A DNA stretch of 64,000 nt from Myxococcota bacterium (GCA_036337945.1 JAYZDF010000063.1:26560-90559); one strand, 5' to 3'; counted from the stretch's first letter, positions 298 through 48,543 are shown. Program-made: numbers and translations. The notes: generated from the letters alone by a model not told the origin.

Positions 298-1587
298 TTA
301 TCTAAGCGAAACGCTGATATAAAGTGTCATGAGAGCGACGGCGCTGACAAAGCCAAGAGTGAACCACAGCAATCGGTGAACCTCTGAACCCGCATTATTT
401 GTGTTCTTTCGTTCGTTTACGAGACTCAATTTCGCAGGCTCTTTTTCATAGAGAATTGAAGTTTCGACTCCAGTTACACGATCGGCGAACGTCAGTGGTT
501 GGGGCATCACCGGGCCGTGCCTTGATTCTAAGGCACGAGTGAATTCACCTTTCTTGATTTCTTGTTCCGGTTTTTCATCGCGAACTTTTGGGCGGGTTAC
601 ATATTGTTCGCCGGTCTGGTGCGATGGAAGGTGGGAAAGTACAAGCGCCTCCCATCTTTTTTGGCCATGACTGGCTTCATCTGCCTTGTAGGTCCGGAAA
701 AATTCGCGTTCTACCTGAGATTCTAGTTTAGAAATAGACTGGTCGGCTGACTGAAGTAGGCGTTCGAACATCATTCCGGTCAATATATTTTGACCAGCGA
801 CGCGAATTGATGTGGGGCAACGCGAGACAATCGACTTAAGGATTTTGATCAAACCTGTCACTGGAGAGTGGGATGTTTCGGCGAGTTTTGGCTTTAGCCC
901 AATAAGCTTGGGTTGTCCTTGGTAGCTTATTAACACGTTTGTTTGCTCCATCCCATTAAGAATTTGGTATTGCGAAGCATCGTCTGAGAGCTGGCCCGAA
1001 ACTTCGTCGACGATTCTGATGAGTTCCATGGCGAGCCAAAGAAAAAGGCGTGGATCCAGTGATTGCTCTGGAAGTTTTTTTAGAAGAGACCCCAGTCCCA
1101 GGCCGAGGGTGTCTTCCGTCAGGACCATGAATTGATTGTTGGTATGGGTGTATCCATAGATACGCGCAATACCGTCGTGACTAATGCTGCGTGCTGTTTC
1201 CACAGCGGCGATGATTTTCTCTAAGCTGTTGGAATTAGCGTTGATAGGATGTGCTCTCATCTTTACCGGAAGCTGCGAAGAAAAACTTTGTTCCACATGC
1301 CAAGCCGGCGCGGATTCATCCTCAATTGGACCAATGAAGGTTACTGGCAATTCCGCGGCTTGCATCTTTTTGCTCGATAAAGGTCTGCAGACCGAATTCG
1401 CCCGCCCACCACGTGAAAAAATATCATTTTTCTGAGCAACATTTTGTCTACAGCACCGATAAATTCTTGGTTTGTCTCGAATTGGGCAAAATTTACAAGG
1501 GTTAAACCTCCTCGCGGCCGCAAAGCGCTTGGTGGCGTCGGTGAGTTCGGATTCTTCTAGCCAGATTAATCCGCACCAACAGAACAA
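298..1587 (-). CDS. hypothetical membrane-anchored protein: Cys-rich N-terminus (possible zinc ribbon), degenerate protein-kinase-like core lacking HRD (pseudokinase-like), C-terminal TM helix
   Basis: Long ORF. Motifs CWCG..NPCKFCP..RCCRQ at the N-terminus, GIARIYGYTHTNNQFMVLTEDTLG kinase-like segment, C-terminal hydrophobic LLWFTLGFVSAVALMTLYISV. The true start may be an internal Met (MQAAELP). Confidence 0.45.
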   Translation of the reverse strand: MFCWCGLIWLEESELTDATKRFAAARRFNPCKFCPIRDKPRIYRCCRQNVAQKNDIFSRGGRANSVCRPLSSKKMQAAELPVTFIGPIEDESAPAWHVEQSFSSQLPVKMRAHPINANSNSLEKIIAAVETARSISHDGIARIYGYTHTNNQFMVLTEDTLGLGLGSLLKKLPEQSLDPRLFLWLAMELIRIVDEVSGQLSDDASQYQILNGMEQTNVLISYQGQPKLIGLKPKLAETSHSPVTGLIKILKSIVSRCPTSIRVAGQNILTGMMFERLLQSADQSISKLESQVEREFFRTYKADEASHGQKRWEALVLSHLPSHQTGEQYVTRPKVRDEKPEQEIKKGEFTRALESRHGPVMPQPLTFADRVTGVETSILYEKEPAKLSLVNERKNTNNAGSEVHRLLWFTLGFVSAVALMTLYISVSLR

Positions 1588-1933
1588 GGTTGCGACCGGA
1601 AAGCAAACGCAAGCTGGTGGTTCAAAATCCGACGACCCTGGTCGTCGAGCGGGTTACAACCGGACCCTAAGTCAGCAAGATATCTCTCGGCTAGCCGCCG
1701 AACTTGAGGAGCGAGGGCGCCGCGGTGTCAATCGCTATATCAACCCAAAAAACCGCAGTAAGAAAGAGGGCAGCGCATTTGCGATAGCCAATGAGGGCAC
1801 TCAAAGTTTCGAGGTTTACGCGCAAGAAACGAAGCCGTTGTCCCGAGAAGAAGCGGTGGCCCAGCATGACGAGCTTTGGCGATATAATCGTTCAATGCGC
1901 GATCTTGTCGGTGTCAAAGTATTTGGCCACTAA
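1472..1933 (+). CDS. doubtful hypothetical ORF (low-complexity, basic) that fills the gap between two minus-strand genes
   Basis: 153-aa ORF with no recognisable motifs. It overlaps the 5' end of the 298..1587 ORF if that ORF uses its longest start. Confidence 0.2.
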   Translation: MSRIGQNLQGLNLLAAAKRLVASVSSDSSSQINPHQQNKVATGKQTQAGGSKSDDPGRRAGYNRTLSQQDISRLAAELEERGRRGVNRYINPKNRSKKEGSAFAIANEGTQSFEVYAQETKPLSREEAVAQHDELWRYNRSMRDLVGVKVFGH

Positions 1934-2710
1934 CCGACCATTGATAAACGCCAGTACCACGTACGCGATAAAGAAAGCTGTGATACCGGAAGTATCGTGA
2001 TAGTTCTGCACGCCGAGTAAGTCGTTCGCTTCATATGACTGTGCCGCGAAACAAAGAGCGCTAATCCGGCCGATGTTGGTAATGGCCGACAAAACTAAGC
2101 TTGCTGCGATGAGCCACGCGATGATTTTCGAGTGCGTACGCTTGAGACTGCCAACAAAGACCGCTAGAGCGACGAAGCGAACCGCTAGGCGCGCACCGCT
2201 ACATTCTGCTGTAATGTAGATCCGGTGGGGGTCACACCAAATTTGGTTATCTGTTCGAATAGCTAAACTCGTATCAAAAATCTGAGTGAACCATGAGGTC
2301 GCTGCTGCCGTAGATATCTGTAAGGATTCTCCAAAATGTAAATCAAGCAAATAGCTCGTTGGAGCGATGAAGAAAAGTAACAATATTCGTCCTGTTGCCA
2401 ACGCAGGGAAGTAGCGATGAAACAGTAGTAAAGTGGCCGGTGCGATAGCATAGCTTGCAATCCAGATTGCATCTAGCACTATGGAAAAAACAGAGATGAT
2501 TGCGAGCAACCAAGGAAGTTGTGAAATAAACGGAATATGAATGGGACCTGGCTCGGCGTATTTGCGTCCTAGCCATATTGCCCAAGCGGTCATGATAGGC
2601 GCGCAGATAATGATTTCTGCGTATCCACCAATTAATGCGTCAAAAAAAACTTCATACACCCCGTAAAGACCGATTAATATACTCGCGATGCATGCAATGA
2701 CGTTAGGCAT
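1892..2710 (-). CDS. exosortase/archaeosortase-family integral membrane transpeptidase (Xrt-like)
   Basis: Polytopic membrane protein. It has the family's conserved motifs: active-site AECSGARLAVRF (Cys-Ser-Gly then Arg), ITNIGRISAL (N-x-x-R-I) and NYHDTSG (His-x-x-G) in successive TM regions. A 9-nt gap downstream of lnt implies co-transcription. Confidence 0.6.
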   Translation of the reverse strand: MPNVIACIASILIGLYGVYEVFFDALIGGYAEIIICAPIMTAWAIWLGRKYAEPGPIHIPFISQLPWLLAIISVFSIVLDAIWIASYAIAPATLLLFHRYFPALATGRILLLFFIAPTSYLLDLHFGESLQISTAAATSWFTQIFDTSLAIRTDNQIWCDPHRIYITAECSGARLAVRFVALAVFVGSLKRTHSKIIAWLIAASLVLSAITNIGRISALCFAAQSYEANDLLGVQNYHDTSGITAFFIAYVVLAFINGRLVAKYFDTDKIAH

Positions 2711-2719
2711 AAGTTGTTT

Positions 2720-4102
2720 CTAATCCTGGCGTCGAAAACCGAACAGGAGGACAACGAGAGTGTATCCTAAGGTCAACGGTGCGAATACACCTTCTGTTCT
2801 CGTAAATATTGATTGCTTACTTTTGAGTTTTATTTTTCCAACGAGAATTCCCGGTTTCCATACTGGTAAATGATGTGTGACCTGACCGCTAGAATCGATC
2901 AGTAGACTTGGCCCCACTTGTGATGAGTGAATTGCTGGTCGCCGCCGCTCAATGGCGCGAAGTACTGTTTTCCGTGCATGCAGCTCGGCAATATTCGTAT
3001 GACCAAAAGCGCCTGGGTCCGTAAAGACTGCGATTGCTTTCGCCTCCTTGGCATGATCAAAAAGGCGCGGAAAAACGCTTTCCCAACAAATAACGGGGGC
3101 GATAGGGGCCTTACTTGGGCCGAGCACGGTTCCCTTCGTTCCCGCACCCAGTCCCGCCTCGATCACGGGTACGTTTTTTCGTTTGTCGTAAATTTGTGCA
3201 GTTTCGAAACCTGGCTCTATATACCAAACAGAATTAAAGTTGATTCCGTCATTGCGATACCTGGGTAGCCCAGCGAGCAGGGCAGGGCGAGTTGTAGAGC
3301 TTAGTGTCTTTCGTAGTTTCTCTTCTTTAGTTGGGTCATGAGGAAGCGCGGTTTCTGGCCAAACTATGAGTTCAACATCCGAAGGTACCTGACTCAAGCT
3401 ATCTGTGTAGGCGTTCTTTAGCACTTGTGAAAACTCGAAGTCTTTTGCTGCGAATTCATAAAACCAATAAGGAATCGCTGCCTGCACGAGTGCAACGTTT
3501 AGCCTTTGGTCGTCGGTTCGTTGTTCTTCTGTCTGTAAATGGTAAAGGCTATAAAGTGAGCTAAGTAGAAGCGCACAGAAAGCTGGTATAGCCGGCTTGA
3601 CCGAGAGTTGGTTTCGGACAGCATATAATGAGGCCCCCAGCCATGCGACGACAAATCCCACAAGATATGTACCACCAAGGTCAGCAATTTGAATGAACCA
3701 GAGTTGGTAAGCAAATCCGTCGCCAAGAGGGGCTGGATTCCAAGCGAGAAGTGTTCGGATATATTCAATTCCGCACCAAAGGGAAGCAACGGTAATTGGT
3801 GTGCCCCAACGCCCACGAAACAATAGTGGCAAGAGGACGACAAAAGCCATTCGGAAGAAAAGGTGCATCAGCCAGGCAACGCCGAATACGTCCCAGCCGT
3901 TTATGATGAAAGACCAAAACGCAAGGCCATCGAAACTGCCAAATAGGAATGCTGGAATGATTGCGCTGCGCGATGTCTTCGTTCTTGTGCATTCGCAGAT
4001 GATTGCGATTCCTAACACAGCAAGCCACGGTGCTTGATCATGAGAAAAAGACATGAGGAGTCCAGCGAGTGCACTCCAAAGCAAGCTCATATCCTTATTC
4101 AT
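2720..4102 (-). CDS. lnt: apolipoprotein N-acyltransferase
   Basis: N-terminal multi-TM domain plus C-terminal CN-hydrolase domain. Catalytic triad context is present: LIVWPETALP (Glu), YDKRKNVP (Lys), PVICWESVFP (Cys), followed by a C-terminal TM helix. Confidence 0.8.
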   Translation of the reverse strand: MNKDMSLLWSALAGLLMSFSHDQAPWLAVLGIAIICECTRTKTSRSAIIPAFLFGSFDGLAFWSFIINGWDVFGVAWLMHLFFRMAFVVLLPLLFRGRWGTPITVASLWCGIEYIRTLLAWNPAPLGDGFAYQLWFIQIADLGGTYLVGFVVAWLGASLYAVRNQLSVKPAIPAFCALLLSSLYSLYHLQTEEQRTDDQRLNVALVQAAIPYWFYEFAAKDFEFSQVLKNAYTDSLSQVPSDVELIVWPETALPHDPTKEEKLRKTLSSTTRPALLAGLPRYRNDGINFNSVWYIEPGFETAQIYDKRKNVPVIEAGLGAGTKGTVLGPSKAPIAPVICWESVFPRLFDHAKEAKAIAVFTDPGAFGHTNIAELHARKTVLRAIERRRPAIHSSQVGPSLLIDSSGQVTHHLPVWKPGILVGKIKLKSKQSIFTRTEGVFAPLTLGYTLVVLLFGFRRQD

Positions 4103-4374
4103 CGTTTGGTTATGGTACTCCTACAATTTTTTGTATCTGCGAGTTTTGCAGCATATTCGCTATCCACGGCAAATACGCCTAGGCCTGGCCGTTCAACGAT
4201 TCGTCCATTTTCCAAGTTTTGAAGCATAACGATAGGCTTTCCATTTTCCGCACCAATTCCTGGCGATATGAGACAGCCGTTCGGGGCCTTGTTGTGTTCT
4301 ATGCTTTGCCTTCTTCGCTTTAGGATTTCTTCTATTGTAAGTGCACGAGACAAGATTGGAGCACCTGTCTTCAT
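4099..4374 (-). CDS. hypothetical small protein; its ATGA overlaps the lnt start
   Basis: 91-aa ORF. The upstream in-frame sequence encodes a TM-like segment (FTFIAGLLVIAGFIHY) but lacks any ATG, GTG or TTG. Confidence 0.4.
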   Translation of the reverse strand: MKTGAPILSRALTIEEILKRRRQSIEHNKAPNGCLISPGIGAENGKPIVMLQNLENGRIVERPGLGVFAVDSEYAAKLADTKNCRSTITKR

Positions 4375-4524: not shown

Positions 4525-7242
4525 TTATCGCACGATCATGAGAATGTCATCATCATCAATCATATCGCCATCATAGTCGGAGTTGTCTTCCCAAACCATG
4601 ATGAGCTGCGTACCATCCACGGCCATGCTTGGCTCAATGGAAATTCCCTGATTGACAGAGTTCATACCGATGTCACTGATTGATGCGTACGGTGAGAACA
4701 TAGAGCCATTCCAAGTTCTCATATAAATATCGAGGTCGGTTCCTGCGCCGTTGATATCACCCGCATCCTCCCAACTTGCGTGGACGTTTCCAAGAGAATC
4801 AATGGCGACATCAGCATTGGTGCTCCTTCCGTCATTGATGTCGTCGCTCAAAAGGATCAGCGAGCCTCGGCCAGCTGGGGTTTGAGGGACAAAGAAGTTG
4901 GCCATGAAGACATCGATGTCAGTACCGTTATTAATTACGTTACCAGAACCGTGCCAGGTAATGTAGAGAAGCCCTCGTGAATCAGCTGGGTCAGCGGCAA
5001 TTCTCGGACGATAGACATTATCGAAACCGTTTTCTTCAGAGATAAGAACGATAGGTCCCCATGTGCAGCCACCTGCCATGTTGGGTGTAGAGCCGCGGTA
5101 ATAAATATCACGGTTCATATCGGTATCCGACATATCGATTTGCCCGTCATCTTGCCAGACGACATGCGGGCAGTTGTCTGGTGTAACCGCGATTCTCGGA
5201 CGGACAGAAACGCCATCTAAACCAGGAAGTGCATCACTGATTAGAGTTGGCTGGTTGAACCCAGCAGAACCACCGCTGGCGTAATAGATATCATAGTCTG
5301 TATCTCCGTCACCGTCGAGGTCACCATTATCTTGCCAGACCACGTGAGCGATGCCTCGGCCGTCGACTGCGACATCGGGATAAATGGAACGATAATCTTG
5401 TTCGTCAGGGCCTGAACCTGCGCCCATAGATGATTGAGATACCAGTAAAGCATTCGTGCCGAGAGACTGCCCATCGTGGTTTCGGTAGTAGATATCTGAC
5501 TCCACGTCGGTGTCTTGATCCAGTGCACCATCATCCTGCCAAACGATATGAAGCCCACCGTTTGACGCTGGTGATACGCTGACATTTTCGGAGTTACCGT
5601 CAAGAACGGGGTTCACAAAATTTGAAACTGTTTCGATGACTGACATCGCAGAACCTGTTCCGTAGAGACGAAGATAGATATCGCGGTCTGTGCCTTCTTC
5701 CGCTCGCTCTACGTTGTCACGCCAAACAACCCCGATTGCGCCATTCGTCGTGACGGCTACTGCAGGACGGTTACTACTTGCTCGGCTAGGATCACTTCCC
5801 CACTCCATTGGGGGAGGATCGTCAGAAACGATACGCGCGAGGTTTGCGACCTCAACGATCATCGTCACTGGGGTCGAGCTGTTCCCCGCGATATCAATCG
5901 CGGTGATGGTGAGTACATGACTTCCATCAGCAACCTGAGTTGTGTCCCAGGCGACAGAGAATGTGGAAGTGTCGGCAAGCGGGATACTTGTCAACGCTTG
6001 ACCATCGACGGCGACGTCAATCGCAGCCACGCCATTCATATTCATATCGGTTGTATTGTCGGTCGCTTCTCCTTCAATGAGAGCAAGGCCGGTCAGTGTG
6101 TCTCCTGCCATGGGCGACAAAATTGTGAGCGCCGGCATCGTGGTGTCTAGCGTAACTGTTGCAACGATGGGATTGCCGGAGGTTCTTCCGCAGAAATCGC
6201 GGGCGTCAATCTGAATAAAGTTCTGGCCTGCGCTGAGAGTGTAAGAAAACATAAAAGTTGTTTCCGCATTCTCCATGACGACTTCATCGTCGTTGACGAG
6301 AATCGCAGAGTTCGCCTCTTTTGTACCGCTGAGCATCAGGTCTGGATTCGACGTGTATGAACCCGGAAGCATAGCTGCTGGAATTTCTGGTTGCGATGGC
6401 GCTGTAGAATCATATTCAACTTCAACCGTGTGTGGAAGACTGATGTTTGTTCCGATTTGTCCAACAAACTCGAGAGTATTTTTTCCTTCATTGAGAGCTA
6501 CAGTGTGTGTCCACGTTGTTTCGTCACCGGCTTCGATTATGAGCGTGTCATTGAGGAGAACAGCTACTCCGGGTGCTCGTTTTCCGGTGATGACTTGAGA
6601 GTCGTCGCAGGTGGGTGACATTGGGTCATCGACGCTCAAGCCGATACCGCTGTCGTCTTGAAAGATATCGAGCTCGACAACTTCGCTTGCACGACATGAA
6701 TCACGTGCCTCGATACGAACTGTATTTGGTCCTGGCATGAGCATGACCTGAGCCGTCCACATTGTGGACTCATCAGGTGGTACAGCAACCATCCCGTCGA
6801 TTGATATTCCAGCACCTGCTTCTTTTTCACCTGAGATGGTGAACATTCTTTCCATAACAACCGCAGGAATCATTCCCGTGACCGTTGGTTTGGCGGGTTG
6901 TGTCAGATCTAGAGTCGTGTTCTTCCGAATGGAGTCACTTTCTTGACCCGTTGCACTTTTAGCAACGATCGTCAGCGTGTTTGTTCCTTCCATCATTTCG
7001 ACCGAAGCATTCCAGGCTGCCTTTTCGTCGAGGGGAACGACTTCCACTCCGTTGATCCAGATGGCAGTAGAACTCTGCTTGGTACCCGATATCGGTGCCG
7101 GTGAAGCGCACACTGTTTCAGCGAGGTCGGCGGTTGGTTTTTCTGGTTTGTCTGTGACGCTAGAGTCCGTTGTTTCTTCGCACGCGAAGCACAATGCGGC
7201 TGCTAAGATCGAGTAAAGTCGAAGGGAATTCGTATGAATCAT
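4525..7242 (-). CDS. secreted (lipo)protein with N-terminal Ig-like/Big-type domains and a C-terminal 7-bladed beta-propeller built from W-x-D...D-x-D-x-DIYYR repeats
   Basis: Signal peptide with Cys (AALCFAC). Seven repeats of about 45-50 aa, for example VVWRDN..GTDRDIYLR, IVWQDDG..DVESDIYYR, VVWQDNG..DTDYDIYYA, VVWQDDG..DMNRDIYYR, ASWEDAG..GTDLDIYMR. Confidence 0.7.
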   Translation of the reverse strand: MIHTNSLRLYSILAAALCFACEETTDSSVTDKPEKPTADLAETVCASPAPISGTKQSSTAIWINGVEVVPLDEKAAWNASVEMMEGTNTLTIVAKSATGQESDSIRKNTTLDLTQPAKPTVTGMIPAVVMERMFTISGEKEAGAGISIDGMVAVPPDESTMWTAQVMLMPGPNTVRIEARDSCRASEVVELDIFQDDSGIGLSVDDPMSPTCDDSQVITGKRAPGVAVLLNDTLIIEAGDETTWTHTVALNEGKNTLEFVGQIGTNISLPHTVEVEYDSTAPSQPEIPAAMLPGSYTSNPDLMLSGTKEANSAILVNDDEVVMENAETTFMFSYTLSAGQNFIQIDARDFCGRTSGNPIVATVTLDTTMPALTILSPMAGDTLTGLALIEGEATDNTTDMNMNGVAAIDVAVDGQALTSIPLADTSTFSVAWDTTQVADGSHVLTITAIDIAGNSSTPVTMIVEVANLARIVSDDPPPMEWGSDPSRASSNRPAVAVTTNGAIGVVWRDNVERAEEGTDRDIYLRLYGTGSAMSVIETVSNFVNPVLDGNSENVSVSPASNGGLHIVWQDDGALDQDTDVESDIYYRNHDGQSLGTNALLVSQSSMGAGSGPDEQDYRSIYPDVAVDGRGIAHVVWQDNGDLDGDGDTDYDIYYASGGSAGFNQPTLISDALPGLDGVSVRPRIAVTPDNCPHVVWQDDGQIDMSDTDMNRDIYYRGSTPNMAGGCTWGPIVLISEENGFDNVYRPRIAADPADSRGLLYITWHGSGNVINNGTDIDVFMANFFVPQTPAGRGSLILLSDDINDGRSTNADVAIDSLGNVHASWEDAGDINGAGTDLDIYMRTWNGSMFSPYASISDIGMNSVNQGISIEPSMAVDGTQLIMVWEDNSDYDGDMIDDDDILMIVR

Positions 7243-7302: not shown

Positions 7303-9042
7303 TTAGAGTTTTAGGGTACCGTAGGACAAATACATCATGGTTAAATTGATGGATAAGTGGCACAAAAATGGGGGTAGGAAGCTGCGTGACTTGTAGTACA
7401 TTAGATACAAAGGTATTCCAGCGCCTACGGTGATCATTCCAATTGATTGCCAAGCTTGCAGGCTCGTGGTGAGACCGACCGAGAGCTGTTCATAGCTCGG
7501 TGATAAATCTACCAGGGCACCCTCCGCAACGGGCGCTATTTGAGAAAAGTCGACCGCTTCAAGAGGGTTTGCAGCAAATGAGTAGTACGTCATATGATAG
7601 AGGCCAAAAAGTAAGCCTCCGAAGACGCTGGGTAGCCAATGGCCTGGCAGTCCTCGCGCCAGATTTCTCGCTAAAAACCCTCGGAAGAAGACCTCTTCAG
7701 CTGCAACGTGGAAAATTGTAAGACCAATGACCACTTCAAGCGCTGATTTTACCGCTTGAGCGGGAGACAAAAAGCCTACGCCGATGCCAAACCCAATCGC
7801 AGGAACCAACCATATTGGGTTACACATAAAATCCGCTTTGTTGAACTTTTGGTCTTTCAAGAAAAACAAGGAGAGAACAACGCCAAAGATGATGAGTAGA
7901 CCTCGTCGAAGGTAGAAGAAATTGTCGCCAGCATCGTAGAAGTATTCGTTGACTCCCATTCTCGACAGTACAGCCATCGCGTAAAGGGCCACAAAAATCA
8001 CGCCAAAACTGAAAATACTTCCGAGCAAACGGCTGAGTTTCGCTTCGGCGATTACATTGTCTCGTTTACCTTTTTTGGTAACTTTGAACGATGCTTTCGA
8101 ATTGGCTTCTGATTTCGATTTTTGGCGGGATTTGAATTCTGAGCCCAACCTATGTGAATCTGAGCTCGCGCTTTTCGTTATCTTCCCTGAGCTTATGTCT
8201 ACGGCGCGTTGCAGTTCGTTCGCGATGTCTCGTCGTCCGGGTTCAATCTCGAGCGCTGACTTGTAGAATTTGATGGCGGCTTTCGCACGACCTACTTCAA
8301 CGGTTGATCGACCGAGATAAACGAGAGTAGAGACACAATATGGAGATTTTTCATGAATCTCTCGTAACTTTCCAAGGAAACCTAGTTTGTCTTGATCGTT
8401 CTTCGCGAGTTTGAATTGAGAGTACGTAAAGGAAGAATGATATTCGGACGTATTTGGGTGTGCTTCTGCAAGCTTTCGAAATATTTCAAGTGCTTCACCC
8501 GCTCGACCTTCCTCAAGATGTCTAAGTCCCAAATCGAATTGAGAACGCTCTCGGAGGTATATAGCGACTTCGTCACCGGGCTCGTCGGTGTTTGCTGGGC
8601 TTACTGCCGCTTCTGCTTGTTGCTCAAGCGCTTGTATCTCCTGACTCATTGAAGCACTTGCCAGTGGATGATAGCTTTTGGAACGTTCGGACGAAGTGTT
8701 GTCGAATAAGAAGTCTTCTACGGTTTTTGGTCTTTCTTGTGGTGGTTCGGGTGTTGGCTCTTCTGTCTGTGCAGGCGCAGTGACATTGGGCGCAGGCGCG
8801 ACGCTGCTCCGACTTTGAATCTCTTGAAACGCTACTGCAAATTCCCGAACACTCAGAATGGGGACATACTGAGTGAAAGGTGCAACAGCAACGTGCGAGT
8901 TTGTAGCTATTTTACCAGCCCGAATCGAGGCGGATATATCCGCCGCGGGAGACGGTCCATATTCGTTCCCGTTTGCAATTCGGAGGCGATACAGCGGCTC
9001 CGTCATCGCGGATACTCTGTCACGCATTGCGCCTGTCAGCAA
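7303..9042 (-). CDS. multidomain membrane protein: N-terminal DUF4339-like domain, TPR repeats, C-terminal CPBP (CAAX protease/Abi) family intramembrane metalloprotease
   Basis: C-terminal polytopic region carries CPBP motifs EEVFFRGF (EExxxR), FGLLFGLYH (FxxxH) and CHLSINL (HxxxN). The middle has TPR-like helical repeats. The N-terminus GNEYGPSPAADISASIRAGKI...VAPFTQYVP is DUF4339-like. The track start is TTG; an ATG lies 15 nt downstream. Confidence 0.7.
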   Translation of the reverse strand: MLTGAMRDRVSAMTEPLYRLRIANGNEYGPSPAADISASIRAGKIATNSHVAVAPFTQYVPILSVREFAVAFQEIQSRSSVAPAPNVTAPAQTEEPTPEPPQERPKTVEDFLFDNTSSERSKSYHPLASASMSQEIQALEQQAEAAVSPANTDEPGDEVAIYLRERSQFDLGLRHLEEGRAGEALEIFRKLAEAHPNTSEYHSSFTYSQFKLAKNDQDKLGFLGKLREIHEKSPYCVSTLVYLGRSTVEVGRAKAAIKFYKSALEIEPGRRDIANELQRAVDISSGKITKSASSDSHRLGSEFKSRQKSKSEANSKASFKVTKKGKRDNVIAEAKLSRLLGSIFSFGVIFVALYAMAVLSRMGVNEYFYDAGDNFFYLRRGLLIIFGVVLSLFFLKDQKFNKADFMCNPIWLVPAIGFGIGVGFLSPAQAVKSALEVVIGLTIFHVAAEEVFFRGFLARNLARGLPGHWLPSVFGGLLFGLYHMTYYSFAANPLEAVDFSQIAPVAEGALVDLSPSYEQLSVGLTTSLQAWQSIGMITVGAGIPLYLMYYKSRSFLPPFLCHLSINLTMMYLSYGTLKL

Positions 9043-9454: not shown

Positions 9455-10009
9455 TTAGAATCTACCAAACGTGAGATTAACTAAGCCGCCCCAAGTATTC
9501 ACCGGGGTTGCTCCTGAGAATGAACCAGCTGGTTCAATGTTATTAGGGTCTGTCCGCCACGCAAACATGAAGACGGCGGGTGCGCCGTTTACGTCGAGGT
9601 CACTTGTTGCCTCGCATCGAACGGCTTCGTTCAAGAACGTGCAGCCGTAATGATAGTAAACTTGCCCCGCGGGCTCGAACCCGATGTCCGTAAATGTACC
9701 GCTTCCCGTTTGTGATGCATTTTGCCCGCTCGTCGGAGAGGCGAAGCGAGGCCAAACTTTCTTCATTCCAGTGATTGGTATCCCTGGCTCGATGCGAGTG
9801 TTGCAGTACGTATCAAAGCTCGCTTTGAAAGCCACTTGGCTCGTTCGAATGCCGCCCAAATTGGTTTTGGCCTCGGTAGTGCGCGCTTTTAGCGTGTATT
9901 TTAGATACAGTGGGATGGCCACGGATGCGAGGATCCCGATAATTGCTACCGTAATCATCAATTCGATGAGTGTGAATCCGGCGGTTCCTTTCTTCGGTAT
10001 TTTCATCAT
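9455..10009 (-). CDS. type IVa pilin (PilA-like major pilin)
   Basis: Prepilin leader MMKIPKKGTAG followed by FTLIELMITVAIIGILASVAIP (Gly-1, Phe+1, Glu+5). C-terminal Cys pair (YGC...VRC) forms a D-region disulfide loop. Shine-Dalgarno AAGGGG lies about 10 nt upstream of the ATG. Confidence 0.8.
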   Translation of the reverse strand: MMKIPKKGTAGFTLIELMITVAIIGILASVAIPLYLKYTLKARTTEAKTNLGGIRTSQVAFKASFDTYCNTRIEPGIPITGMKKVWPRFASPTSGQNASQTGSGTFTDIGFEPAGQVYYHYGCTFLNEAVRCEATSDLDVNGAPAVFMFAWRTDPNNIEPAGSFSGATPVNTWGGLVNLTFGRF

Positions 10010-11330: not shown

Positions 11331-14300
11331 TTAGGGCTTGAGTTCAAGCAAATAGGCCGCGCCGCAAAAATTTTGGTCACGGGCGGCGTCGAGCGCTCCG
11401 ACCCCCAAATAAGTAGCGCCAGAAATTTGAGCACTGGATAGGGTGTGGCCCGGTCGTCCGCCCGGGTAATTTGTTTGTCCGATAAAACTGGCGACTGGAA
11501 ATGGATTAAGGCCGACGCCATAAATGAACTCATACATCTGAATATCGCCCGCCAAAGACGTTCCCCCGTAATCACCGTAGGGCACACCAACAGCAAGTCC
11601 GACTCGGCCTTGCCCATCGAAATTCGGAATAAATGTCACCCCATTGCCGAAGTTGCCTGACCCTGTCGAACCCGGCAGAGAGAGAACCAGCTGATTGCTT
11701 GGGTCGCTGAAACCATAAAAGGTAGCAGTGGACGCATTTTCAATTGGTTCTGGCGTCAAAGTCTGAAGGTACGAACCCAAAATAATCCATACTGCGCCAA
11801 CAACATTGCCGTTCAGTCTGTACTCGTTTCCGCCGACTGCCAGATCAGGAAGTCCGTCAGAGTCGATATCGAGACCACCGCTGAGACTTGTACCCGCTCT
11901 TGAGAATCGCGACCGTGACTCGAGCGTCAAGAGCTGAGGAGTCAGATAGTCACAGTTGATTCCGGCTCCGAAGACAATCCGTATCGTTCCTTGATTCGTG
12001 CTTCCGTTATCCTCCTCACGGCTGCCAACGACAAATTCATCGCATCCATCGCGATTAAGGTCCCCGAGTTTTCCTAGTGAATGCCCGATTCGACTATTTG
12101 GGCTGATGCCGTACATCGTTGGTTGAACATCACAAATGATTTGAGTCCGTCCATTATTGCTCGGTGCGCGTCCATGAAGGATGGTAAAGCCACCAGAATT
12201 ATTTATACCGGGTGCATCCCAATTAACGCCTGAAACAATAACATCATCAAAGCCGTCGCCGTTCACGTCTACGTCGCCGACGACAGCGTACATTTCAGAG
12301 CTACGGTGAGGTCCGTAATAAATGTAAGCCGGTTGTGACGATATATTCCCATTGGAGTCACCGCGAAATATAAATACCGCGCCTGAGTTATTCTTGCTGG
12401 GCCCGCAAGTTGTTCCGATGACATCATAGGTACTGTTGTTAAAAGACGAAGGTTGATCATCGTAGCGAGCGACGACCGCAAAGTCATTGGTCCCGTCGTT
12501 ATCAAAGTCTCCGACGCGGCTAACGCTGAAACCGAAATGGTCACCGCCCGAATGTCGTCTAAATCGGTCGAGTTCTACATCTGGTTGTGTACCAAAGCCG
12601 TTTGCTGTTCCGAAATAAAGGGCGGCACCGCCGGCGTTGATGCCTACCGAACGAATATCTCTGGCGTGAGCGCCGACCAAAAAGTCAGTAATGTTGTCAC
12701 CATTCACATCGCCAACAAAATCTACTGATATGCCGAATTGATCACCCCCTGCGGAGCCGGGGAGCCCGAGAAGTTCTAACGGTTTGCTTTCGTCTCCAGG
12801 TACGAAAAACGGTGCACCTTCGTTAATGCCGTAGACATCAGAGTATGCAGAAAGTGCAACCAGGTCATTACGCCCGTCGCGGTCTAAATCTCCAACGACG
12901 TCAAAGAACATACCAAAGCGATTTTCGGAAGTAGGCCCAACGATGACTCGCATGGGCGTTGTTGTCGCTGTATCCGGTAATATTCCATCTTCGCCTTCGA
13001 AAATGAATATTGTCCCGGCGTTGTTGCGGCCACCAGGAATTTCGTCGCTATGGTTGCCGACAATTAGGTCGTTTCTCGTGTCACCATCGTAATCTGACAC
13101 GCGCACATACCATCCAGCTTCGTCATTATTATTCGCACCGAACCAGGACAGAGTAGCTGTTTCAACGGCAGATAGATTGAGCATTGGTGTGTCAGGCAAG
13201 TCGAGTTCTTGATAAATCCTGATAGCGCCTCGATTTGTTCCACCTGCGGCGGCATTTTCAGCCCGGAACTGCGTAACGACGAGTTCGTCTGCGAGGTCTC
13301 CGTCGAGGTCTCCAGCCGCCATGAAACGAGCAAACTGGCTCGATCTTTCGGGAGCGACAGTGGCTGCATACCCGCGAACTGGAAATGGCGTCAGCCCGCC
13401 AGGTCCGCTACCATCGGCAGCTCGGCCTCGATAAATAAACAACAGTCCATCATCGGTATTGGTGGGGCCAGCGTCATAAACAAAAGTACCCGCAGCAAGG
13501 TCACAAACCGCATCTCCGTTGAAGTCACCGGCGGCTAAAGCGCGCCCAAGTTGGAGGCTTGTCCGACCCGCGAATGTTCCGTCGCCCAGCGGCATATCCC
13601 CCCAAAGTGAAACGTCCGGTGTATCAGAAAATCCATCAGATCCACCCATATGGATATAAACAGCGCCTTGGTCGTTACTTCTTGTTCGTCGTAGGCGATC
13701 TTCGGCTAAAATTGCACCGATCGCGATGTCCATGTATCCATCGGCGTTGAAGTCACAAGCTTCGACAGCGGTTCCTGCGTAGTCAAATGCGTTAGTTCCG
13801 CCGATGGCTCGAGTAGGTTCTGCACTAAAGAAAGAATTCGGTTGTCCTGAAAAAATATAGACACCACCGTTATCGCGAGCGCCAATATCAGCGCGCATGG
13901 CACCGACGATCAGGTCGAGTAAGCCGTCTCCATCCAGGTCGGCAATGGTCATAGAACGCCCAAACTGCGCGCTTCGACCGCCTTCACTGAGGACGCGAAC
14001 CGGTGTTGGATCCAATCCTGTGGCAGTCCCTTGATAAATAAGCACAGCGCCTGAGTCCGTCGCATTATAGTTTGTTTCTGCCCAAGCCACGGCGACATCG
14101 TCAAACCCGTCTTGATTGATGTCTCCGGTTCGAACGACCGCGCCTGAATTAATGTATGAGCCAGAACGAGTTGTAGAACTGGTGAGAGAAGGGACAGCGA
14201 AAGCTGAAATTTGACTCGTTTGAGATGTGTAACGGTCTGTGACAGAAAGCAGTGTGTCACCTTCTGCTAATGCTTTGATTGTACCGTTCGCGTAAGAGAA

Positions 14301-15149
14301 GTTTGTATTACTCGGTGTAATATCAAAAAATCCGCTGCCTCCATTTATTTGAACTACGTATTCTGTTTCCACGGGCATATATACAGATGAGGGAACAGGT
14401 TGGAGAACGGCATTTTCTTGTAGCTCGATCAATGCATCTGCTGCGTCGCCTGTGAGAATATCTTCAATTCTAATTCTTTCCTGGCCAGCGCTTCCATTGC
14501 CCATGTAAAGACCGCTTGCCGAAATCGTACCAGTGCTTGCACCATTCGGCCGTGGCAAAATTCTGTAACTAAATTGCCCCGAGCCATCAAAGACTTCAAA
14601 TTGAACCTGTCCGTTTGTATCGATGGTCGCATTTTGAGGACGGACCTCAATTCGCGAAAGTACATTGACGGTTGCAGTAGCCGTTCCTGTGCAACCTAGG
14701 TCGGTGACGTGAATGGTGTCCGTTGTTTGTTCGACCGTGCCGGAAAGATAGGCTCCTGTCTCAATATTGAGTACTGCTCCGGAATTATTTTCTGCGAGTT
14801 CGAAAACATGAGCTCCGGTTCCACCACTCGCTTGGAAGTTGATGAGTCCCAAAGGTGTCGCTGATTTTGCTTCCGGTTGAACGGTGAGCGCAGGAGAGCA
14901 GGGTCCGATTTTCGCGCCACTGTCCGGTTGAATTGAGCCGGTATCCGGGCGAGCGAAACCTGCATCGGGCTCTGTGGGTGCGGCATCGACGGTTGCCTCT
15001 ACATCAGGGATGACAACTGCGGATGCATCCGGCCCGAGAGGGATCGGCGGTAGATCTACGGTTTGTTCGCATCCCAGGGCTACAGAGAATGCGACCGAGG
15101 GTATCAGCCATTTGCCTTGAGGCTTAGTAAAACTAGCGATGGAGGTCAT
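11331..15149 (-). CDS. giant FG-GAP (integrin-alpha/VCBS-type) repeat lipoprotein
   Basis: Lipobox VAFSVALGC. More than 15 FG-GAP-like repeats (DINQDGFDDVAVAW, DLDGDGLLDLIVGA, DFNADGYMDIAIGA, GDFNGDAVCDLAAG, DVNGDGFDDVIVSG and others). The track start at 15242 is an upstream alternative; I prefer MTSIASF at 15149. Confidence 0.75.
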   Translation of the reverse strand: MTSIASFTKPQGKWLIPSVAFSVALGCEQTVDLPPIPLGPDASAVVIPDVEATVDAAPTEPDAGFARPDTGSIQPDSGAKIGPCSPALTVQPEAKSATPLGLINFQASGGTGAHVFELAENNSGAVLNIETGAYLSGTVEQTTDTIHVTDLGCTGTATATVNVLSRIEVRPQNATIDTNGQVQFEVFDGSGQFSYRILPRPNGASTGTISASGLYMGNGSAGQERIRIEDILTGDAADALIELQENAVLQPVPSSVYMPVETEYVVQINGGSGFFDITPSNTNFSYANGTIKALAEGDTLLSVTDRYTSQTSQISAFAVPSLTSSTTRSGSYINSGAVVRTGDINQDGFDDVAVAWAETNYNATDSGAVLIYQGTATGLDPTPVRVLSEGGRSAQFGRSMTIADLDGDGLLDLIVGAMRADIGARDNGGVYIFSGQPNSFFSAEPTRAIGGTNAFDYAGTAVEACDFNADGYMDIAIGAILAEDRLRRTRSNDQGAVYIHMGGSDGFSDTPDVSLWGDMPLGDGTFAGRTSLQLGRALAAGDFNGDAVCDLAAGTFVYDAGPTNTDDGLLFIYRGRAADGSGPGGLTPFPVRGYAATVAPERSSQFARFMAAGDLDGDLADELVVTQFRAENAAAGGTNRGAIRIYQELDLPDTPMLNLSAVETATLSWFGANNNDEAGWYVRVSDYDGDTRNDLIVGNHSDEIPGGRNNAGTIFIFEGEDGILPDTATTTPMRVIVGPTSENRFGMFFDVVGDLDRDGRNDLVALSAYSDVYGINEGAPFFVPGDESKPLELLGLPGSAGGDQFGISVDFVGDVNGDNITDFLVGAHARDIRSVGINAGGAALYFGTANGFGTQPDVELDRFRRHSGGDHFGFSVSRVGDFDNDGTNDFAVVARYDDQPSSFNNSTYDVIGTTCGPSKNNSGAVFIFRGDSNGNISSQPAYIYYGPHRSSEMYAVVGDVDVNGDGFDDVIVSGVNWDAPGINNSGGFTILHGRAPSNNGRTQIICDVQPTMYGISPNSRIGHSLGKLGDLNRDGCDEFVVGSREEDNGSTNQGTIRIVFGAGINCDYLTPQLLTLESRSRFSRAGTSLSGGLDIDSDGLPDLAVGGNEYRLNGNVVGAVWIILGSYLQTLTPEPIENASTATFYGFSDPSNQLVLSLPGSTGSGNFGNGVTFIPNFDGQGRVGLAVGVPYGDYGGTSLAGDIQMYEFIYGVGLNPFPVASFIGQTNYPGGRPGHTLSSAQISGATYLGVGALDAARDQNFCGAAYLLELKP

Positions 15150-15298
15150 AAGGTATCCCTTTGGTACCACGATTACTGGGGTGGAAGAAAATTGGGACCG
15201 TCGAACTTTTGTTGGGGTAATAGGAGTTGCTGTATATCGCACAAGATCGTCGGATAAAGGAAAAGCCGCGTTGATAAGGATTAGGAATACGCGCTATT

Positions 15299-16828
15299 TT
15301 GAAACCACTCGTGAAAAAACAGATTTTTCCATCGTTCATCGCTATATCGTTGCTCACGTTTGGTTGTATCGCCGAACCCGTCGAAATGCCTCCAACCGCT
15401 ATGCCCGCCTTAGATGGAGGCATTCGTGTCAGGCCTCCTGTTCAACCAGACCCATTTCCAGTTGACCTTCGCAGCGTTGACTTTGGAGTAAGTGACCAGA
15501 TCATTCCTCTTCTCAGCGGAGGAATTGTCACCCGAACTGGAACAGTTGTCGAATATCGCGCTAATCTCGGACAGTCTCCTGTTGTACTCAATCATGCTTT
15601 TTCAGCGTTGCTTGACGCGGAAACTTTGCCTTGGGGCTCCTTGCTCCTCTGGACTGGTTCGGAGTTTTTTATCTGGGAAGATGACCAAGTAGTCCGTTCT
15701 CCTATATCTGAGAAGATTCCCGTCACGAAAAGTGGCGAATTGCTCATCGCTCCCGGACCGAGTGGAAAGAAAGATGTTTGGATTACCACAGACAGCGCCG
15801 TATTTTTATGGAGAGAGGAACAAGCGATCCAGCTTGACTTTGGTCCTCTTGCTGCAGGGCCGAAGCATCTTCGCTTCGGGGCGCCATGGAACACCTCTGC
15901 TGCGACCTGGTTGGGGACATCAAACGGCGTGGATGCCTTGGTCGAAACCGGCACGGTGACGACGCGCTATCAAAGCTTGGTGGCGTATCCAGTAGACAAC
16001 CTGGTGATTGATTTTGAAGGGACAGTTTGGGTGCTTACATCTGGTCGTTTGTTTAGCCGAGACTGGGACAACAACTGGGTTGAACACCTTGGCTTAGGCA
16101 CGGTTTTGGCGATCGCAGGCCACCGGGACTCCAAGCAACTTTGGCTGATGACAAAAAGGATGGGGCTTTGGTCTCATCGCGGCGGTAATTTTCAGCCCGC
16201 AGAATGGTCAGACAATGGTCTTAGCTTAGATTCGCTCGACCTCGAAAAGTTAGTTTTTAGTGGTTTACGTGAGGGTCAATTGATTGTGGGTGACCACTTG
16301 AATCGTTACGTAGTGACTCCTGGTCGATTTTTAAATCTTGAGGGTCTCGAGGACGGGAGCCTTCTTACGTCAACGGTGAGTTTTGATGTAAGGGTTTCCG
16401 AGCCACAGACCGTGGATGAAATTCAGGTATTTCTGGACGGTCAGCCATTGAGTCCGGCTTCATCACCTTCGAATTTTTCAATAAGCCCTGCGGGACTGGC
16501 AGACGGCTCGCACGAGATAAGTGTAAACGTTAGTTATTTAGACGGAGCCCCTGATTCACGGTTGGTGGTTCGTTTCTCTGTGTATAGTGAAAACCCACCA
16601 ACATGGGTCAACGACATCTTTCCTATTTTTCAAAATGATTGTGAAGTTTGTCATGGGCTAAGGGGAAGTGCCCGTTTGCTAAGTACGCCTGACTTGTGGC
16701 GTAGTGATATAGATATAATTTTGGACGTTGTTCGGAAAGGCACTATGCCTCTCCCACCGAGTCCTCCGCTTTCCGAGGGAGAGATCATTCAGATCGAAGG
16801 ATGGAAAGCGGCGGGTTATTTGGAGTGA
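15299..16828 (+). CDS. lipoprotein with a novel N-terminal ~430-aa region and a C-terminal PSCyt1 (Planctomycete cytochrome C, CxxCH) domain
   Basis: Lipobox LLTFGC. C-terminus IFPIFQNDCEVCHGLRGSARLLS...GTMPLPP...LSEGEIIQIEGWKAAG matches the PSCyt1 pattern. TTG start with AGGA upstream; an alternative GTG lies 12 nt downstream. Confidence 0.65.
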   Translation: MKPLVKKQIFPSFIAISLLTFGCIAEPVEMPPTAMPALDGGIRVRPPVQPDPFPVDLRSVDFGVSDQIIPLLSGGIVTRTGTVVEYRANLGQSPVVLNHAFSALLDAETLPWGSLLLWTGSEFFIWEDDQVVRSPISEKIPVTKSGELLIAPGPSGKKDVWITTDSAVFLWREEQAIQLDFGPLAAGPKHLRFGAPWNTSAATWLGTSNGVDALVETGTVTTRYQSLVAYPVDNLVIDFEGTVWVLTSGRLFSRDWDNNWVEHLGLGTVLAIAGHRDSKQLWLMTKRMGLWSHRGGNFQPAEWSDNGLSLDSLDLEKLVFSGLREGQLIVGDHLNRYVVTPGRFLNLEGLEDGSLLTSTVSFDVRVSEPQTVDEIQVFLDGQPLSPASSPSNFSISPAGLADGSHEISVNVSYLDGAPDSRLVVRFSVYSENPPTWVNDIFPIFQNDCEVCHGLRGSARLLSTPDLWRSDIDIILDVVRKGTMPLPPSPPLSEGEIIQIEGWKAAGYLE

Positions 16829-16833
16829 AAAAA

Positions 16834-18435
16834 ATGAGAATTTTATTCGCCGCTACTTTGTTAGCCACGCTGGTCGGGTCTGCCCAAGCAAGTGTTCCTA
16901 ACGAAGCATTGATGTGCAGGCCTGACGAGCCGCGCATGGACAAATTCGCTTATCTAAGAGCGCTGAGTTTGGATATTCGTGGAGATGTACCGACCTACGA
17001 TGAGTATGCTGAACTTGCAGCGAACCACTCCGATGTCCCCGATGCATGGATAGAGAACTGGTTGAGTAGTGAAGCTTTTGTAGAGCGCGCCGTTCGTGCG
17101 CATCGCTCTTTAGTATGGAACAACCTCGATGCAGTTCGGCTTGGTAACTATCGACAGAACTTCCGCCGGATTCGAGCCAGCGACAATAGTTTCGTATACT
17201 ACCGAGACCGCCAAGCGGCGGTATACAGACATGTCAATCGCCCTCCTTGTGATGTTGACCGGCCAGTAGAGTATGATTCAGCCGGGCGAATTAGAACCTG
17301 GGCAAAAGACTTCATCCGTAATGGAGAAACATATAGCGCGCAGGTTGAAGGTTACGTCATGGTGTCTCCTTATTGGGCGCCCAACACTTCGATAAAAGTT
17401 TGCGCATTTGACGCTCAAGTTGGGGACGTCTCCGCCTCTGGTTCAGACTGCCGAACGAACGGCGGATTCGGAGATGCCGGTTGCGGTTGTGGTGAAAATC
17501 TAAAATTGTGCCGGTACGGCAGCAATGTTTATTCGGAGCGAGCATCTCTTGAGCGCGATGTCGAACTTCGCATTGCAGACGTCATTCGCAACAATCGTCC
17601 GTACACAGAGATGTTTACAAGTCGTAAAGCGTATGTAAACGGGCCTCTTGTTCACTTCTTGAAACATCATATCGGATTCACGTCGGGTACCAGCTTGGAG
17701 CCGCTTCCGTTTGACGAGGCGAACCTCCCCGATATCCCGTTTACGGACTACAATTACTACGAAATCGATTTACCCGCCGAACATGCCGGAATCTTGACGA
17801 GCCCTAGCTTTCTGCTGCGCTTCCAAACAAACCGAGCGCGTGCGAATCGATTCTTTGACGCGTTTATGTGTTCTCCGCCATCTCCTCCTTCGGGCGGGTT
17901 GCCTGCCCAGGATCCAAACGCACGCATCGAGCCTGACCTGCAGTTGAGAGACGGCTGCAAATATTGCCACGCGCTCCTAGAGCCAGCGGCTGCGCACTGG
18001 GGTCGTTGGACCGAACGTGGTTCTGGCTTTCTTAGTATGGAGCAATTTCCTCCGACTCGCGCAGATTGCGAAGAGTGCGGACGAACTGGACAAGCATGCA
18101 GTCAAGAATGCCGCTTGCACTACGTAACCCAAGCTTTCACACCGGAAGAGGACCAATACATCGGTATGCTCAATGCCTATCAGTGGATGAAACCTTCTCA
18201 CCAAAGAAACGTTGAGTTAGGTCCAAAGTTCCTAGTTCTTACTTCCATCGTTGATGCCCGTTTCCCAGACTGCACCGCGAAGCGAGCTCTGGAGTCCCTA
18301 CTAGGACGCGAGACGAATGCTGCGGAGCAAGAATGGATTAAGGACCTTTCTAAGGATTTCCTAAACTCCGGATACCGATATCGCGATCTGGTGAAAGCCA
18401 TTGTGACCAGTGATATCTACAGGAGGATTCGATAA
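16834..18435 (+). CDS. periplasmic PSCyt2/PSD1 (DUF1549/DUF1553) family protein
   Basis: Own signal peptide MRILFAATLLATLVGSAQA. DUF1549-like motif YLRALSLDIRGDVPTYDEY...AWIENWL. Downstream there is a second CxxCH (DGCKYCHALLEP). The track ORF starts at 16801, upstream of the signal peptide. Confidence 0.65.
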   Translation: MRILFAATLLATLVGSAQASVPNEALMCRPDEPRMDKFAYLRALSLDIRGDVPTYDEYAELAANHSDVPDAWIENWLSSEAFVERAVRAHRSLVWNNLDAVRLGNYRQNFRRIRASDNSFVYYRDRQAAVYRHVNRPPCDVDRPVEYDSAGRIRTWAKDFIRNGETYSAQVEGYVMVSPYWAPNTSIKVCAFDAQVGDVSASGSDCRTNGGFGDAGCGCGENLKLCRYGSNVYSERASLERDVELRIADVIRNNRPYTEMFTSRKAYVNGPLVHFLKHHIGFTSGTSLEPLPFDEANLPDIPFTDYNYYEIDLPAEHAGILTSPSFLLRFQTNRARANRFFDAFMCSPPSPPSGGLPAQDPNARIEPDLQLRDGCKYCHALLEPAAAHWGRWTERGSGFLSMEQFPPTRADCEECGRTGQACSQECRLHYVTQAFTPEEDQYIGMLNAYQWMKPSHQRNVELGPKFLVLTSIVDARFPDCTAKRALESLLGRETNAAEQEWIKDLSKDFLNSGYRYRDLVKAIVTSDIYRRIR

Positions 18436-19217: not shown

Positions 19218-19229
19218 GAGGCAACTGAG

Positions 19230-46068: not shown

Positions 46069-46119
46069 GGGCGACCTTGGATCCTGCAACAGGTGTCATG
46101 GTAATAATCGGGCGTAGTC

Positions 46120-47070: not shown

Positions 47071-47076
47071 GTCTCG

Positions 47077-48513: not shown

Positions 48514-48543
48514 GACGATGCCACTCTAACACGGGAGCACTAA

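Follow-up and report, generated by a model that had tools for sequence, protein, structure and literature searches.

In a 64,000-nucleotide stretch of DNA from a Myxococcota bacterium (GCA_036337945.1, JAYZDF010000063.1:26560-90559), here called the window, the gene for an exosortase-family membrane protein, xrt, directly follows the gene for an apolipoprotein N-acyltransferase, lnt. A synteny search for this pairing, already proposed in a preliminary description of the window, was positive down to 21% identity in Xrt: an lnt gene lies immediately upstream of xrt in all nine distinct family members whose genomic context can be read. Because the pairing recurs in every one of these, including a distant locus (L010) with changed flanks, we conclude from the sequences that the adjacency is a selected feature of the Xrt family, its independent context coming mainly from L010. 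The pairing is real, and it provides a lead on how exosortases anchor proteins. Two Cys-dependent acyl-transfer enzymes are encoded as a pair, and both are predicted to act at the outer face of the inner membrane. The reading that we favour, by analogy and at somewhat below an even chance, is that Lnt and Xrt may form a conserved, co-expressed two-enzyme membrane module for lipid anchoring of envelope proteins, in which they would share a pathway.

The two genes and the sequence between them are placed as follows (nt, nucleotides; aa, amino acids).

1892-2710, minus strand: xrt, 272 aa; NCBI MEE2902592.1 is exactly the window protein
2720-4102, minus strand: lnt, an Lnt-type apolipoprotein N-acyltransferase gene, 460 aa
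2711-2719, minus strand: lnt-xrt spacer aaacaactt, 9 nt, in frame

The preliminary description had put the exosortase gene 9 nt downstream of a full-length lnt, and both coordinates and spacer were confirmed on the minus strand. The junction reads TAG-aaacaactt-ATG, with both genes in the same reading frame, and an AGGA lies 13 nt upstream of the xrt ATG, within the 3' end of lnt. Neither a sigma-70-like promoter nor an intrinsic-terminator-like site was found at the junction, counts of such sites in the region being the same as in shuffled sequence. At its other end, the start of lnt is overlapped for 4 nt by the stop of a small upstream open reading frame (ORF; 4099-4374). The GC content of the cluster is uniform with that of its surroundings. 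Given the 9-nt gap in the window, the 4-nt overlaps in relatives (below) and a junction free of promoter- and terminator-like sites, lnt and xrt are likely to be co-expressed, and they are apparently translationally coupled.

Xrt scored 56.2 bits against PF09721 (cutoff 25.7) and 37.3 bits against TIGR04178 (cutoff 23), placing it in the superfamily on both models; its relatives P0006, P0010, P0011 and P0014 are also above the TIGR04178 cutoff. The assignment to the exosortase family made in the preliminary description therefore holds. The subfamily models were checked as well, and none of their cutoffs was reached. The best of them, TIGR02602, gave 41.5 bits against a cutoff of 105.55; among the named subfamilies scored (XrtA, B, D, F, J, N, O, S, T, V, W and X; CrtA and CrtC; ArtE), the XrtA model gave 36 bits against a cutoff of 208, and the remaining Xrt, Crt and Art models were also far below cutoff. 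The sequence motifs C170-S-G172, N212-I-G-R215 and H238-D-T-S-G242 are invariant within the family. Of the motifs first described, Cys-Ser-Gly and N-x-x-R are conserved as stated, while the His motif is H-x-x-x-G rather than H-x-x-G. When 116 other exosortase-family proteins were aligned to the family profile, all 116 matched it at C170, at G172 and at N212, 115 at R215, 110 at H238 and 103 at G242. Conservation of the Cys, Arg and His positions, named beforehand as a point on which the assignment could fail, was thus upheld. The candidate catalytic residues, from the alignment, are encoded at the following positions.

2201-2203, minus strand: Xrt C170
2066-2068, minus strand: Xrt R215
1997-1999, minus strand: Xrt H238

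Hydropathy and the positive-inside rule predict eight transmembrane (TM) segments with both termini inside. An AlphaFold2 model of Xrt consists of eight long helices (pLDDT 88.7, pTM 0.84), with a periplasmic beta-hairpin loop preceding C170, and in it C170, R215 and H238 are predicted at the periplasmic ends of the last three helices. This layout agrees with that reported for exosortases, whose motifs C-x-G, N-x-x-R and H-x-x-x-G are found at the outer ends of three helices in succession (PMC1569441). A sequence search of the PDB gave no match to Xrt and a fold search gave chance-level matches only (best E 0.12); these searches found no solved exosortase structure and no solved structure resembling Xrt. 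A further motif, C159-x-x-H162, sits in the periplasmic hairpin (2234-2236 and 2225-2227); it is invariant in the family and specific to it, a Cys at position 159 occurring in none of the 116 other exosortases. C220 (2051-2053), near R215, is likewise a family-specific invariant. Together C159, H162 and C220 could provide a disulfide or a second reactive site.

The ratio of non-synonymous to synonymous substitution (dN/dS) for xrt is 0.06-0.07, indicating purifying selection and a stronger constraint than on lnt. The strict conservation of the Cys/Arg/His residues under such selection argues that Xrt has retained catalysis. In every defining feature of sequence and topology, Xrt is a member of the exosortase/archaeosortase superfamily, with predicted catalytic activity. 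It founds a separate, previously unclassified, Lnt-linked subfamily, outside the named subfamilies and outside the PEP-CTERM/exopolysaccharide (EPS) system as defined.

The partner protein scored 166.6 bits against TIGR00546 (equivalog cutoff 132.9), and Pfam recognizes in it LNT_N (45.9 bits) and CN_hydrolase (52 bits). A profile built from four Lnts of the cluster matched all solved Lnts, which include those of Pseudomonas aeruginosa (5N6M) and Escherichia coli (5N6H), at E~1e-22 over positions 9-452. The motifs WPE(250)T, YDK(307)R..VP..E(315) and IC(339)WE align with the catalytic and accessory residues of the solved enzymes, in which their counterparts are WPE, K..VP..E and ICYE. All four cluster Lnts have E250, K307 and C339, and W213 and E315 are also present. 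The full-length Lnt with an intact E/K/C triad that had been described from the sequence is thus borne out by profile alignment, with the triad encoded as follows.

3353-3355, minus strand: Lnt E250, aligned to the Glu of the solved E/K/C triad
3182-3184, minus strand: Lnt K307, aligned to the Lys
3086-3088, minus strand: Lnt C339, aligned to the Cys

By score, architecture and triad, the 460-aa protein is a divergent Lnt with predicted N-acyltransferase activity, and its gene is under purifying selection (dN/dS 0.07-0.12). With the E. coli and P. aeruginosa enzymes it shares LNT_N and CN_hydrolase, the triad, the Trp, the second Glu and a C-terminal TM8 with a basic tail; unlike them, it is shorter, has a low margin over the cutoff and is coupled to an exosortase gene and a small ORF. 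The proteobacterial gene context of lnt is ybeZYX-lnt.

The divergence could mean that this is a specialized Lnt paralogue dedicated to the exosortase pathway, which would build a lipid acceptor or anchor, or N-acylate the ~900-aa lipoprotein encoded nearby. The orthologues score 143-178 bits on TIGR00546, so that all full-length copies pass the cutoff by a small margin; the window protein, at 460 aa, is ~50-70 aa shorter than the solved chains (510-532 aa), and as a single sequence it matches solved proteobacterial Lnts weakly (37 bits to that of P. aeruginosa). The cluster Lnts are 34-48% identical to one another, and nearer each other than to the solved proteobacterial proteins. Lnt paralogues are, moreover, known in actinobacteria. 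We nevertheless consider such a dedicated paralogue unlikely, because the protein retains every residue known to be required in Lnt catalysis and aligns over its full length with the solved Lnts, and because the 64-kb window encodes no second Lnt.

The Xrt family is tiny, rare and isolated. A word-indexed search of 5.8 billion proteins returned only 6-10 Xrt-family clusters, and an exhaustive profile search of 1.84 billion representative proteins gave ~6 clusters at 50% identity. In the exhaustive search, family members scored 444-282 bits and the outlier P0014 scored 107, while ~370 generic exosortases reached 58 bits or less. Two pattern scans of 185,579 GTDB species genomes found no family relative, and a scan of JGI metagenomes yielded no more than a fragment and a single long locus that is almost identical to the window. 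The host lineage is an uncultured marine Myxococcota group, together with one more distant relative. The nine loci read, with Xrt identities of 21-94% and GC contents of 49-74%, are these.

Window: query Xrt; lnt-xrt junction, 9-nt gap
L008: Xrt 93% identical to that of the window; Lnt upstream
L005: Xrt 83% identical; junction, 8-nt gap
L007: Xrt 51% identical; junction, 4-nt overlap
L015 (P0010): Xrt 42% identical; junction, 4-nt overlap
L001: Xrt 41% identical; junction, 4-nt overlap
L006: Xrt 39% identical; junction, 4-nt overlap
L012-14 (P0011): Xrt 36% identical; junction, 4-nt overlap
L010 (P0014): Xrt 21-23% identical; junction, 4-nt overlap, GTGA

Wherever a locus extends upstream of xrt, a local Lnt profile confirmed the Lnt gene there, and the overlap of start and stop codons is found in six of the nine (L001, L006, L007, L010, L012 and L015). 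In the main lineage the pair forms the 3' end of a five-gene cluster on one strand, encoding in order a CPBP-family protein, a ~900-aa lipoprotein, the small ORF, Lnt and Xrt. Eight of the nine loci share their flanks as well: an FG-GAP protein, a pilin, the five-gene cluster, two conserved ORFs, cpYpsA, HisRS, Mrp and ArgRS. In L010, the most distant member, Lnt shares 34% identity with that of the window (E 1e-57), and the usual flanks are replaced by a sodium:solute symporter and a 404-aa membrane protein.

Genes for DUF3485/EpsI, sugar transferases and Wzy are absent from the lnt-xrt cluster in the window and in the loci of relatives. The nearest non-family exosortase on a long contig, L011, is by contrast part of a classical EPS locus with EpsI, Bac_transf, glycosyltransferases and Wzy_C; the remark in the preliminary description that the link to Lnt is unusual is consistent with this, since neither an EPS locus nor EpsI adjoins xrt. 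No Lnt was seen beside the small non-family exosortases P0017 and P0019, whose contigs of only ~1 kb make this weak evidence. As a Rosetta-stone test, ten long exosortase matches were inspected; they carry EpsI or TPR extensions, and none is fused to Lnt.

Against this background, XrtA/EpsH shares with the window Xrt the superfamily (PF09721, TIGR04178), the three motifs and their predicted placement at the outer ends of helices. Typical exosortases, however, score 94-198 bits on PF09721 and are often fused to EpsI (DUF3485), whereas Xrt scores 56 bits and lacks EpsI. Unlike XrtA/EpsH, it also has no EpsI, EPS or PEP-CTERM genes nearby (64 kb), is always preceded by Lnt, and carries the invariant Cys159.

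The best-supported analogy, and the closest precedent for the lnt-xrt pairing, is the linkage of artA with pssA and pssD. In Methanosarcina artA adjoins these two genes, and ethanolamine-lipid synthesis is required for ArtA-dependent lipid anchoring; in the model proposed, a Cys thioester is resolved by a lipid amine (PMC7157517). ArtA belongs to the same superfamily as Xrt and is linked to enzymes of ethanolamine phospholipids; the partner in the window, Lnt, likewise uses phosphatidylethanolamine (PE). The two cases differ in that the partner of Xrt, an acyltransferase, uses up PE instead of synthesizing it, and in that the host is a diderm bacterium; the present system, moreover, is known from its genes alone.

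Lnt takes PE as its acyl donor and leaves lyso-PE over. Since Lnt consumes PE, an exosortase in need of an ethanolamine-lipid acceptor would share the substrate pool of Lnt. In the module that we favour, both enzymes would act on the outer face of the inner membrane, in one lipid-anchoring pathway. Lnt would move an acyl chain of PE, via a Cys thioester, onto an amine; Xrt would form a peptidyl-Cys thioester on the membrane-proximal signal of a putative cargo, and would then pass this on to an acceptor amine that belongs to the same phospholipid chemistry, in PE or in the lyso-PE left by Lnt. We infer from the gene arrangement a shared pathway, co-transcription and physical or functional coupling, and with them the acceptor and the cargo. 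In a more specific form, Lnt and Xrt would assemble into a physical complex, and the Xrt thioester would be resolved on a lipid or lipoprotein amine that is also handled by Lnt. The candidate amines would be the ethanolamine of PE or lyso-PE, or the alpha-amino group of a diacylglyceryl-Cys apolipoprotein such as the ~900-aa lipoprotein. We think it rather unlikely that the coupling goes this far.

Several points weigh against a shared pathway. HisRS, Mrp and ArgRS are also syntenic in eight of the nine members, so that most of the conservation of lnt with xrt could be inherited gene order, and independent support for the adjacency comes mainly from one 4.6-kb contig, L010. The Lnt may be the only housekeeping copy of the cell, as it passes the equivalog cutoff and is encoded in a core-genome region with local GC. 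The step in which PE or lyso-PE would serve as acceptor is drawn purely by analogy, no cargo candidate was found in the window or related loci (below), and we found no paper linking Lnt with exosortases, only reviews that treat each separately.

In another explanation, the two are independent enzymes in one housekeeping operon: an ordinary, sole Lnt, and an Xrt that sorts unrelated PEP-CTERM-like cargo encoded elsewhere, their adjacency reflecting shared regulation or frozen order. The scores of all full-length Lnts above the TIGR00546 cutoff, the local GC, the position of the cluster among HisRS, Mrp and ArgRS with their likewise conserved order, and the want of a second Lnt within 64 kb would all be expected if this were so. 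It does not account well, however, for the retention of the pair in L010 despite changed flanks, nor for start/stop overlaps that persist at GC contents from 49 to 74% and at identities as low as 21%. The Xrt family, furthermore, is found only beside Lnt, with no Lnt beside the non-family exosortases examined, and xrt is more constrained than lnt. We regard independent enzymes as a real possibility, if a doubtful one.

To look for cargo, proteins ending in a hydrophobic helix followed by a basic tail were sought under both strict and relaxed criteria. In the window and ~150 kb of related loci, no ORF with a signal peptide or lipobox also has a motif, TM helix and basic tail at its C-terminus. 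Three candidates were set aside: the TM8 of Lnt itself, which the scan matched; the kinase-like neighbour of xrt, which is without a signal peptide; and an FHA-like protein at 57866-59032, which is cytoplasmic. PEP-CTERM proteins were likewise absent from the 64 kb and from related loci, as expected by chance with ~50 genes sampled. With a sample of this size, the lack of cargo is uninformative about a dispersed set, but it rules out an obvious dedicated target next to the pair.

The window had been described as rich in lipoproteins with FGC or FAC lipoboxes, and this proved correct. The pattern F[GA]C occurs five times in 19,447 aa, four times at residues 19-23 behind a signal h-region; among 48 ORFs there are eight lipobox candidates, half of which carry Phe at -2. 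These four, with the lipobox [STC]-F-[GA]-C, are encoded at 4525-7242, 15299-16828, 18435-19217 and 28685-29434. Orthologues of the first, the 905-aa lipoprotein of the cluster, have either LSFAC or a canonical LLAGC.

The preliminary description had further suggested coordinated processing of envelope proteins at both ends; on this model, Lnt would triacylate the N-terminus, and Xrt cleave or transfer the C-terminus, of the same proteins. The adjacency and apparent translational coupling of the genes would suit such an arrangement, as would the eight lipoprotein candidates. But no predicted lipoprotein of the window or related loci has a C-terminal TM segment with a basic tail, and the lipoprotein of the cluster itself ends in a conserved repeat strand (...D.D[IV].M.IR) with no sorting signal. 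With no ORF in these sequences carrying both signals, the proposal has no support, and we consider dual-end processing very improbable.

The other genes of the cluster and its immediate flank are as follows.

4099-4374, minus strand: small conserved ORF, 91 aa, no known domain
4525-7242, minus strand: 905-aa lipoprotein (NCBI MEE2902595.1), lipobox LCFAC, Ig-like domains and repeats
7303-9042, minus strand: CPBP (Rce1-like) intramembrane protease homologue, 579 aa, PF02517
1472-1933, plus strand: convergent basic ORF, 153 aa, conserved neighbour, no domain match
298-1587, minus strand: kinase-like downstream neighbour, ~354 aa in relatives, conserved

The CPBP homologue scored 50 bits against PF02517 (cutoff 22.4); its EExxxR and HxxxN motifs are intact, and a 340-aa cytoplasmic N-terminal region carries TPR repeats. 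Its gene opens the cluster in L001, L012 and L015. No myxosortase model is among its NCBIfam matches, all of which are weak and far below cutoff, and no MYXO-CTERM-like tail occurs in the window, so that the protein does not fall within the myxosortase (MrtX/MrtC) system. In L010 the 404-aa membrane protein (1857-3071, minus strand) has a Pro-rich linker and a degenerate CPBP-like C-terminal region, with LELVLR and LCHFLAA where EExxxR and HxxxN would be expected. It was considered as a CPBP protein and not established as one (PF02517, 19.2 bits, below the cutoff of 22.4; BLAST E 0.009; no match to the local profile), and, its Pfam match being sub-threshold, orthology to the CPBP protein of the window is unproven. 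Outside the main lineage, a link between CPBP and Xrt is not established.

There is precedent for the company that these families keep. Four fusions of EpsH with a CAAX protease have been noted (PMC1569441), and in Staphylococcus aureus lipoprotein N-acylation depends on the CPBP protein LnsB, whose role in it is non-catalytic (PMC13559823, PMC7387801). Both make the composition of the lnt-xrt cluster less arbitrary. XrtE-type proteins (TIGR04162), which we take to be exosortase-CPBP fusions, would be a further case. As in such fusions, both families are found here in one genetic unit, but as separate genes at opposite ends of the cluster. The likeness to LnsAB is that a lipoprotein N-acyltransferase cooperates with a CPBP-family membrane protein; the differences are that LnsA is of the NlpC/P60 type, that the genes lie apart, that no exosortase is involved and that the motifs of LnsB are dispensable, whereas those of the window CPBP protein are kept.

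By the example of LnsB and LnsA, Xrt might be a non-sorting partner of Lnt, a chaperone or modifier of its substrate, possibly together with the CPBP protein. In LnsAB a polytopic protein of a protease family serves N-acylation without relying on its protease motifs (PMC13559823), and in the present case coupling implies roughly 1:1 expression, the cargo search in the window and related loci came up empty and Cys159 is specific to the Xrt family. We find this improbable, since the Cys/Arg/His signature of Xrt is complete and does not vary, and purifying selection on it is strong, which argues for retained catalysis. The Lnt of E. coli, besides, works alone.

The 905-aa lipoprotein contains Big_7, Glucodextran_B and Big_13 domains and seven 'P.IAVD...D.DIYY' repeats, and shows only sub-threshold similarity to NF053835 (PDIAV motif-containing lipoprotein, PDIAV_lipo); its orthologues, 51-70% identical, occupy the same position in related loci. 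The small ORF, 91 aa in the window and 117-154 aa in relatives, has two conserved Cys residues, a dN/dS of 0.39 and no Pfam or NCBIfam match. It is conserved in all main-lineage loci (L001, L007, L012 and L015), being present in L015 (8137-8637) where gene callers missed it; unlike the window copy, those of L001 and L012 have a hydrophobic segment at the N-terminus. The 153-aa ORF, very basic and without a domain match, is convergent with xrt, with a 42-nt overlap at the 3' end of the latter. All main-lineage loci have this ORF, its dN/dS is 0.06-0.13, and in L005 it is more conserved than Xrt (91.5% vs 83%). The kinase-like protein, recognized by a PF07714 match on its L015 orthologue, is always encoded two genes downstream of xrt; it has a highly conserved C-terminal TM segment, 'WFTLGFV.A', with a single terminal basic residue, and its lack of a signal peptide makes it unlikely exosortase cargo.

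Elsewhere in the window, a type IV pilin-like gene (9455-10009) and a gene for a 1303-aa FG-GAP repeat protein (11331-15242) are followed by a run of lipoproteins, adjoining the latter, with a DUF1549/PSD2 protein and a DUF1501 protein (15299-20603, plus strand); the pairing of DUF1549/PSD2 with DUF1501 is typical of Planctomycetota. A VKOR-thioredoxin/DsbA fusion protein (22974-24413, plus strand) implies a VKOR-based periplasmic disulfide system in this organism. A gene set for DUF4350, a MoxR-type AAA_3 ATPase and a DUF58/VWA protein (44764-49899) lies in a stretch of slightly lower GC (0.447-0.465 vs ~0.49 elsewhere). Rfam and tRNA scans of the window gave no matches.

In its host group, uncultured marine Myxococcota, the locus also draws attention to a divergent clade of Lnt and to a variant lipobox that has Phe at -2. 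Should Lnt and Xrt be paired for regulation alone, what is left is a new, rare exosortase subfamily with its cargo still to come. Its wider interest lies in the exosortases of bacteria, which were predicted in 2006 (PMC1569441) and are widespread, and for which the attachment of substrates and the question of a one-step transpeptidase are unsettled (bioRxiv 10.1101/2023.06.07.544157). In archaea, the artA-pssA-pssD neighbourhood was the clue that led to the model of an ethanolamine-lipid acceptor. The present locus offers a comparable clue for bacteria, an exosortase subfamily strictly and, it appears, translationally coupled to Lnt; the chemistry of this partner (Cys thioester, PE co-substrate, amine acceptor) is known down to the atomic level, and the two genes, at 2.2 kb, are small enough for co-expression in E. 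coli. Should Lnt and Xrt prove to act as a complex on a common amine, the pair would, for the first time, give genetic access to the acceptor used by bacterial exosortases, long sought, and would represent a new way of conjugating proteins to lipids or lipoproteins.

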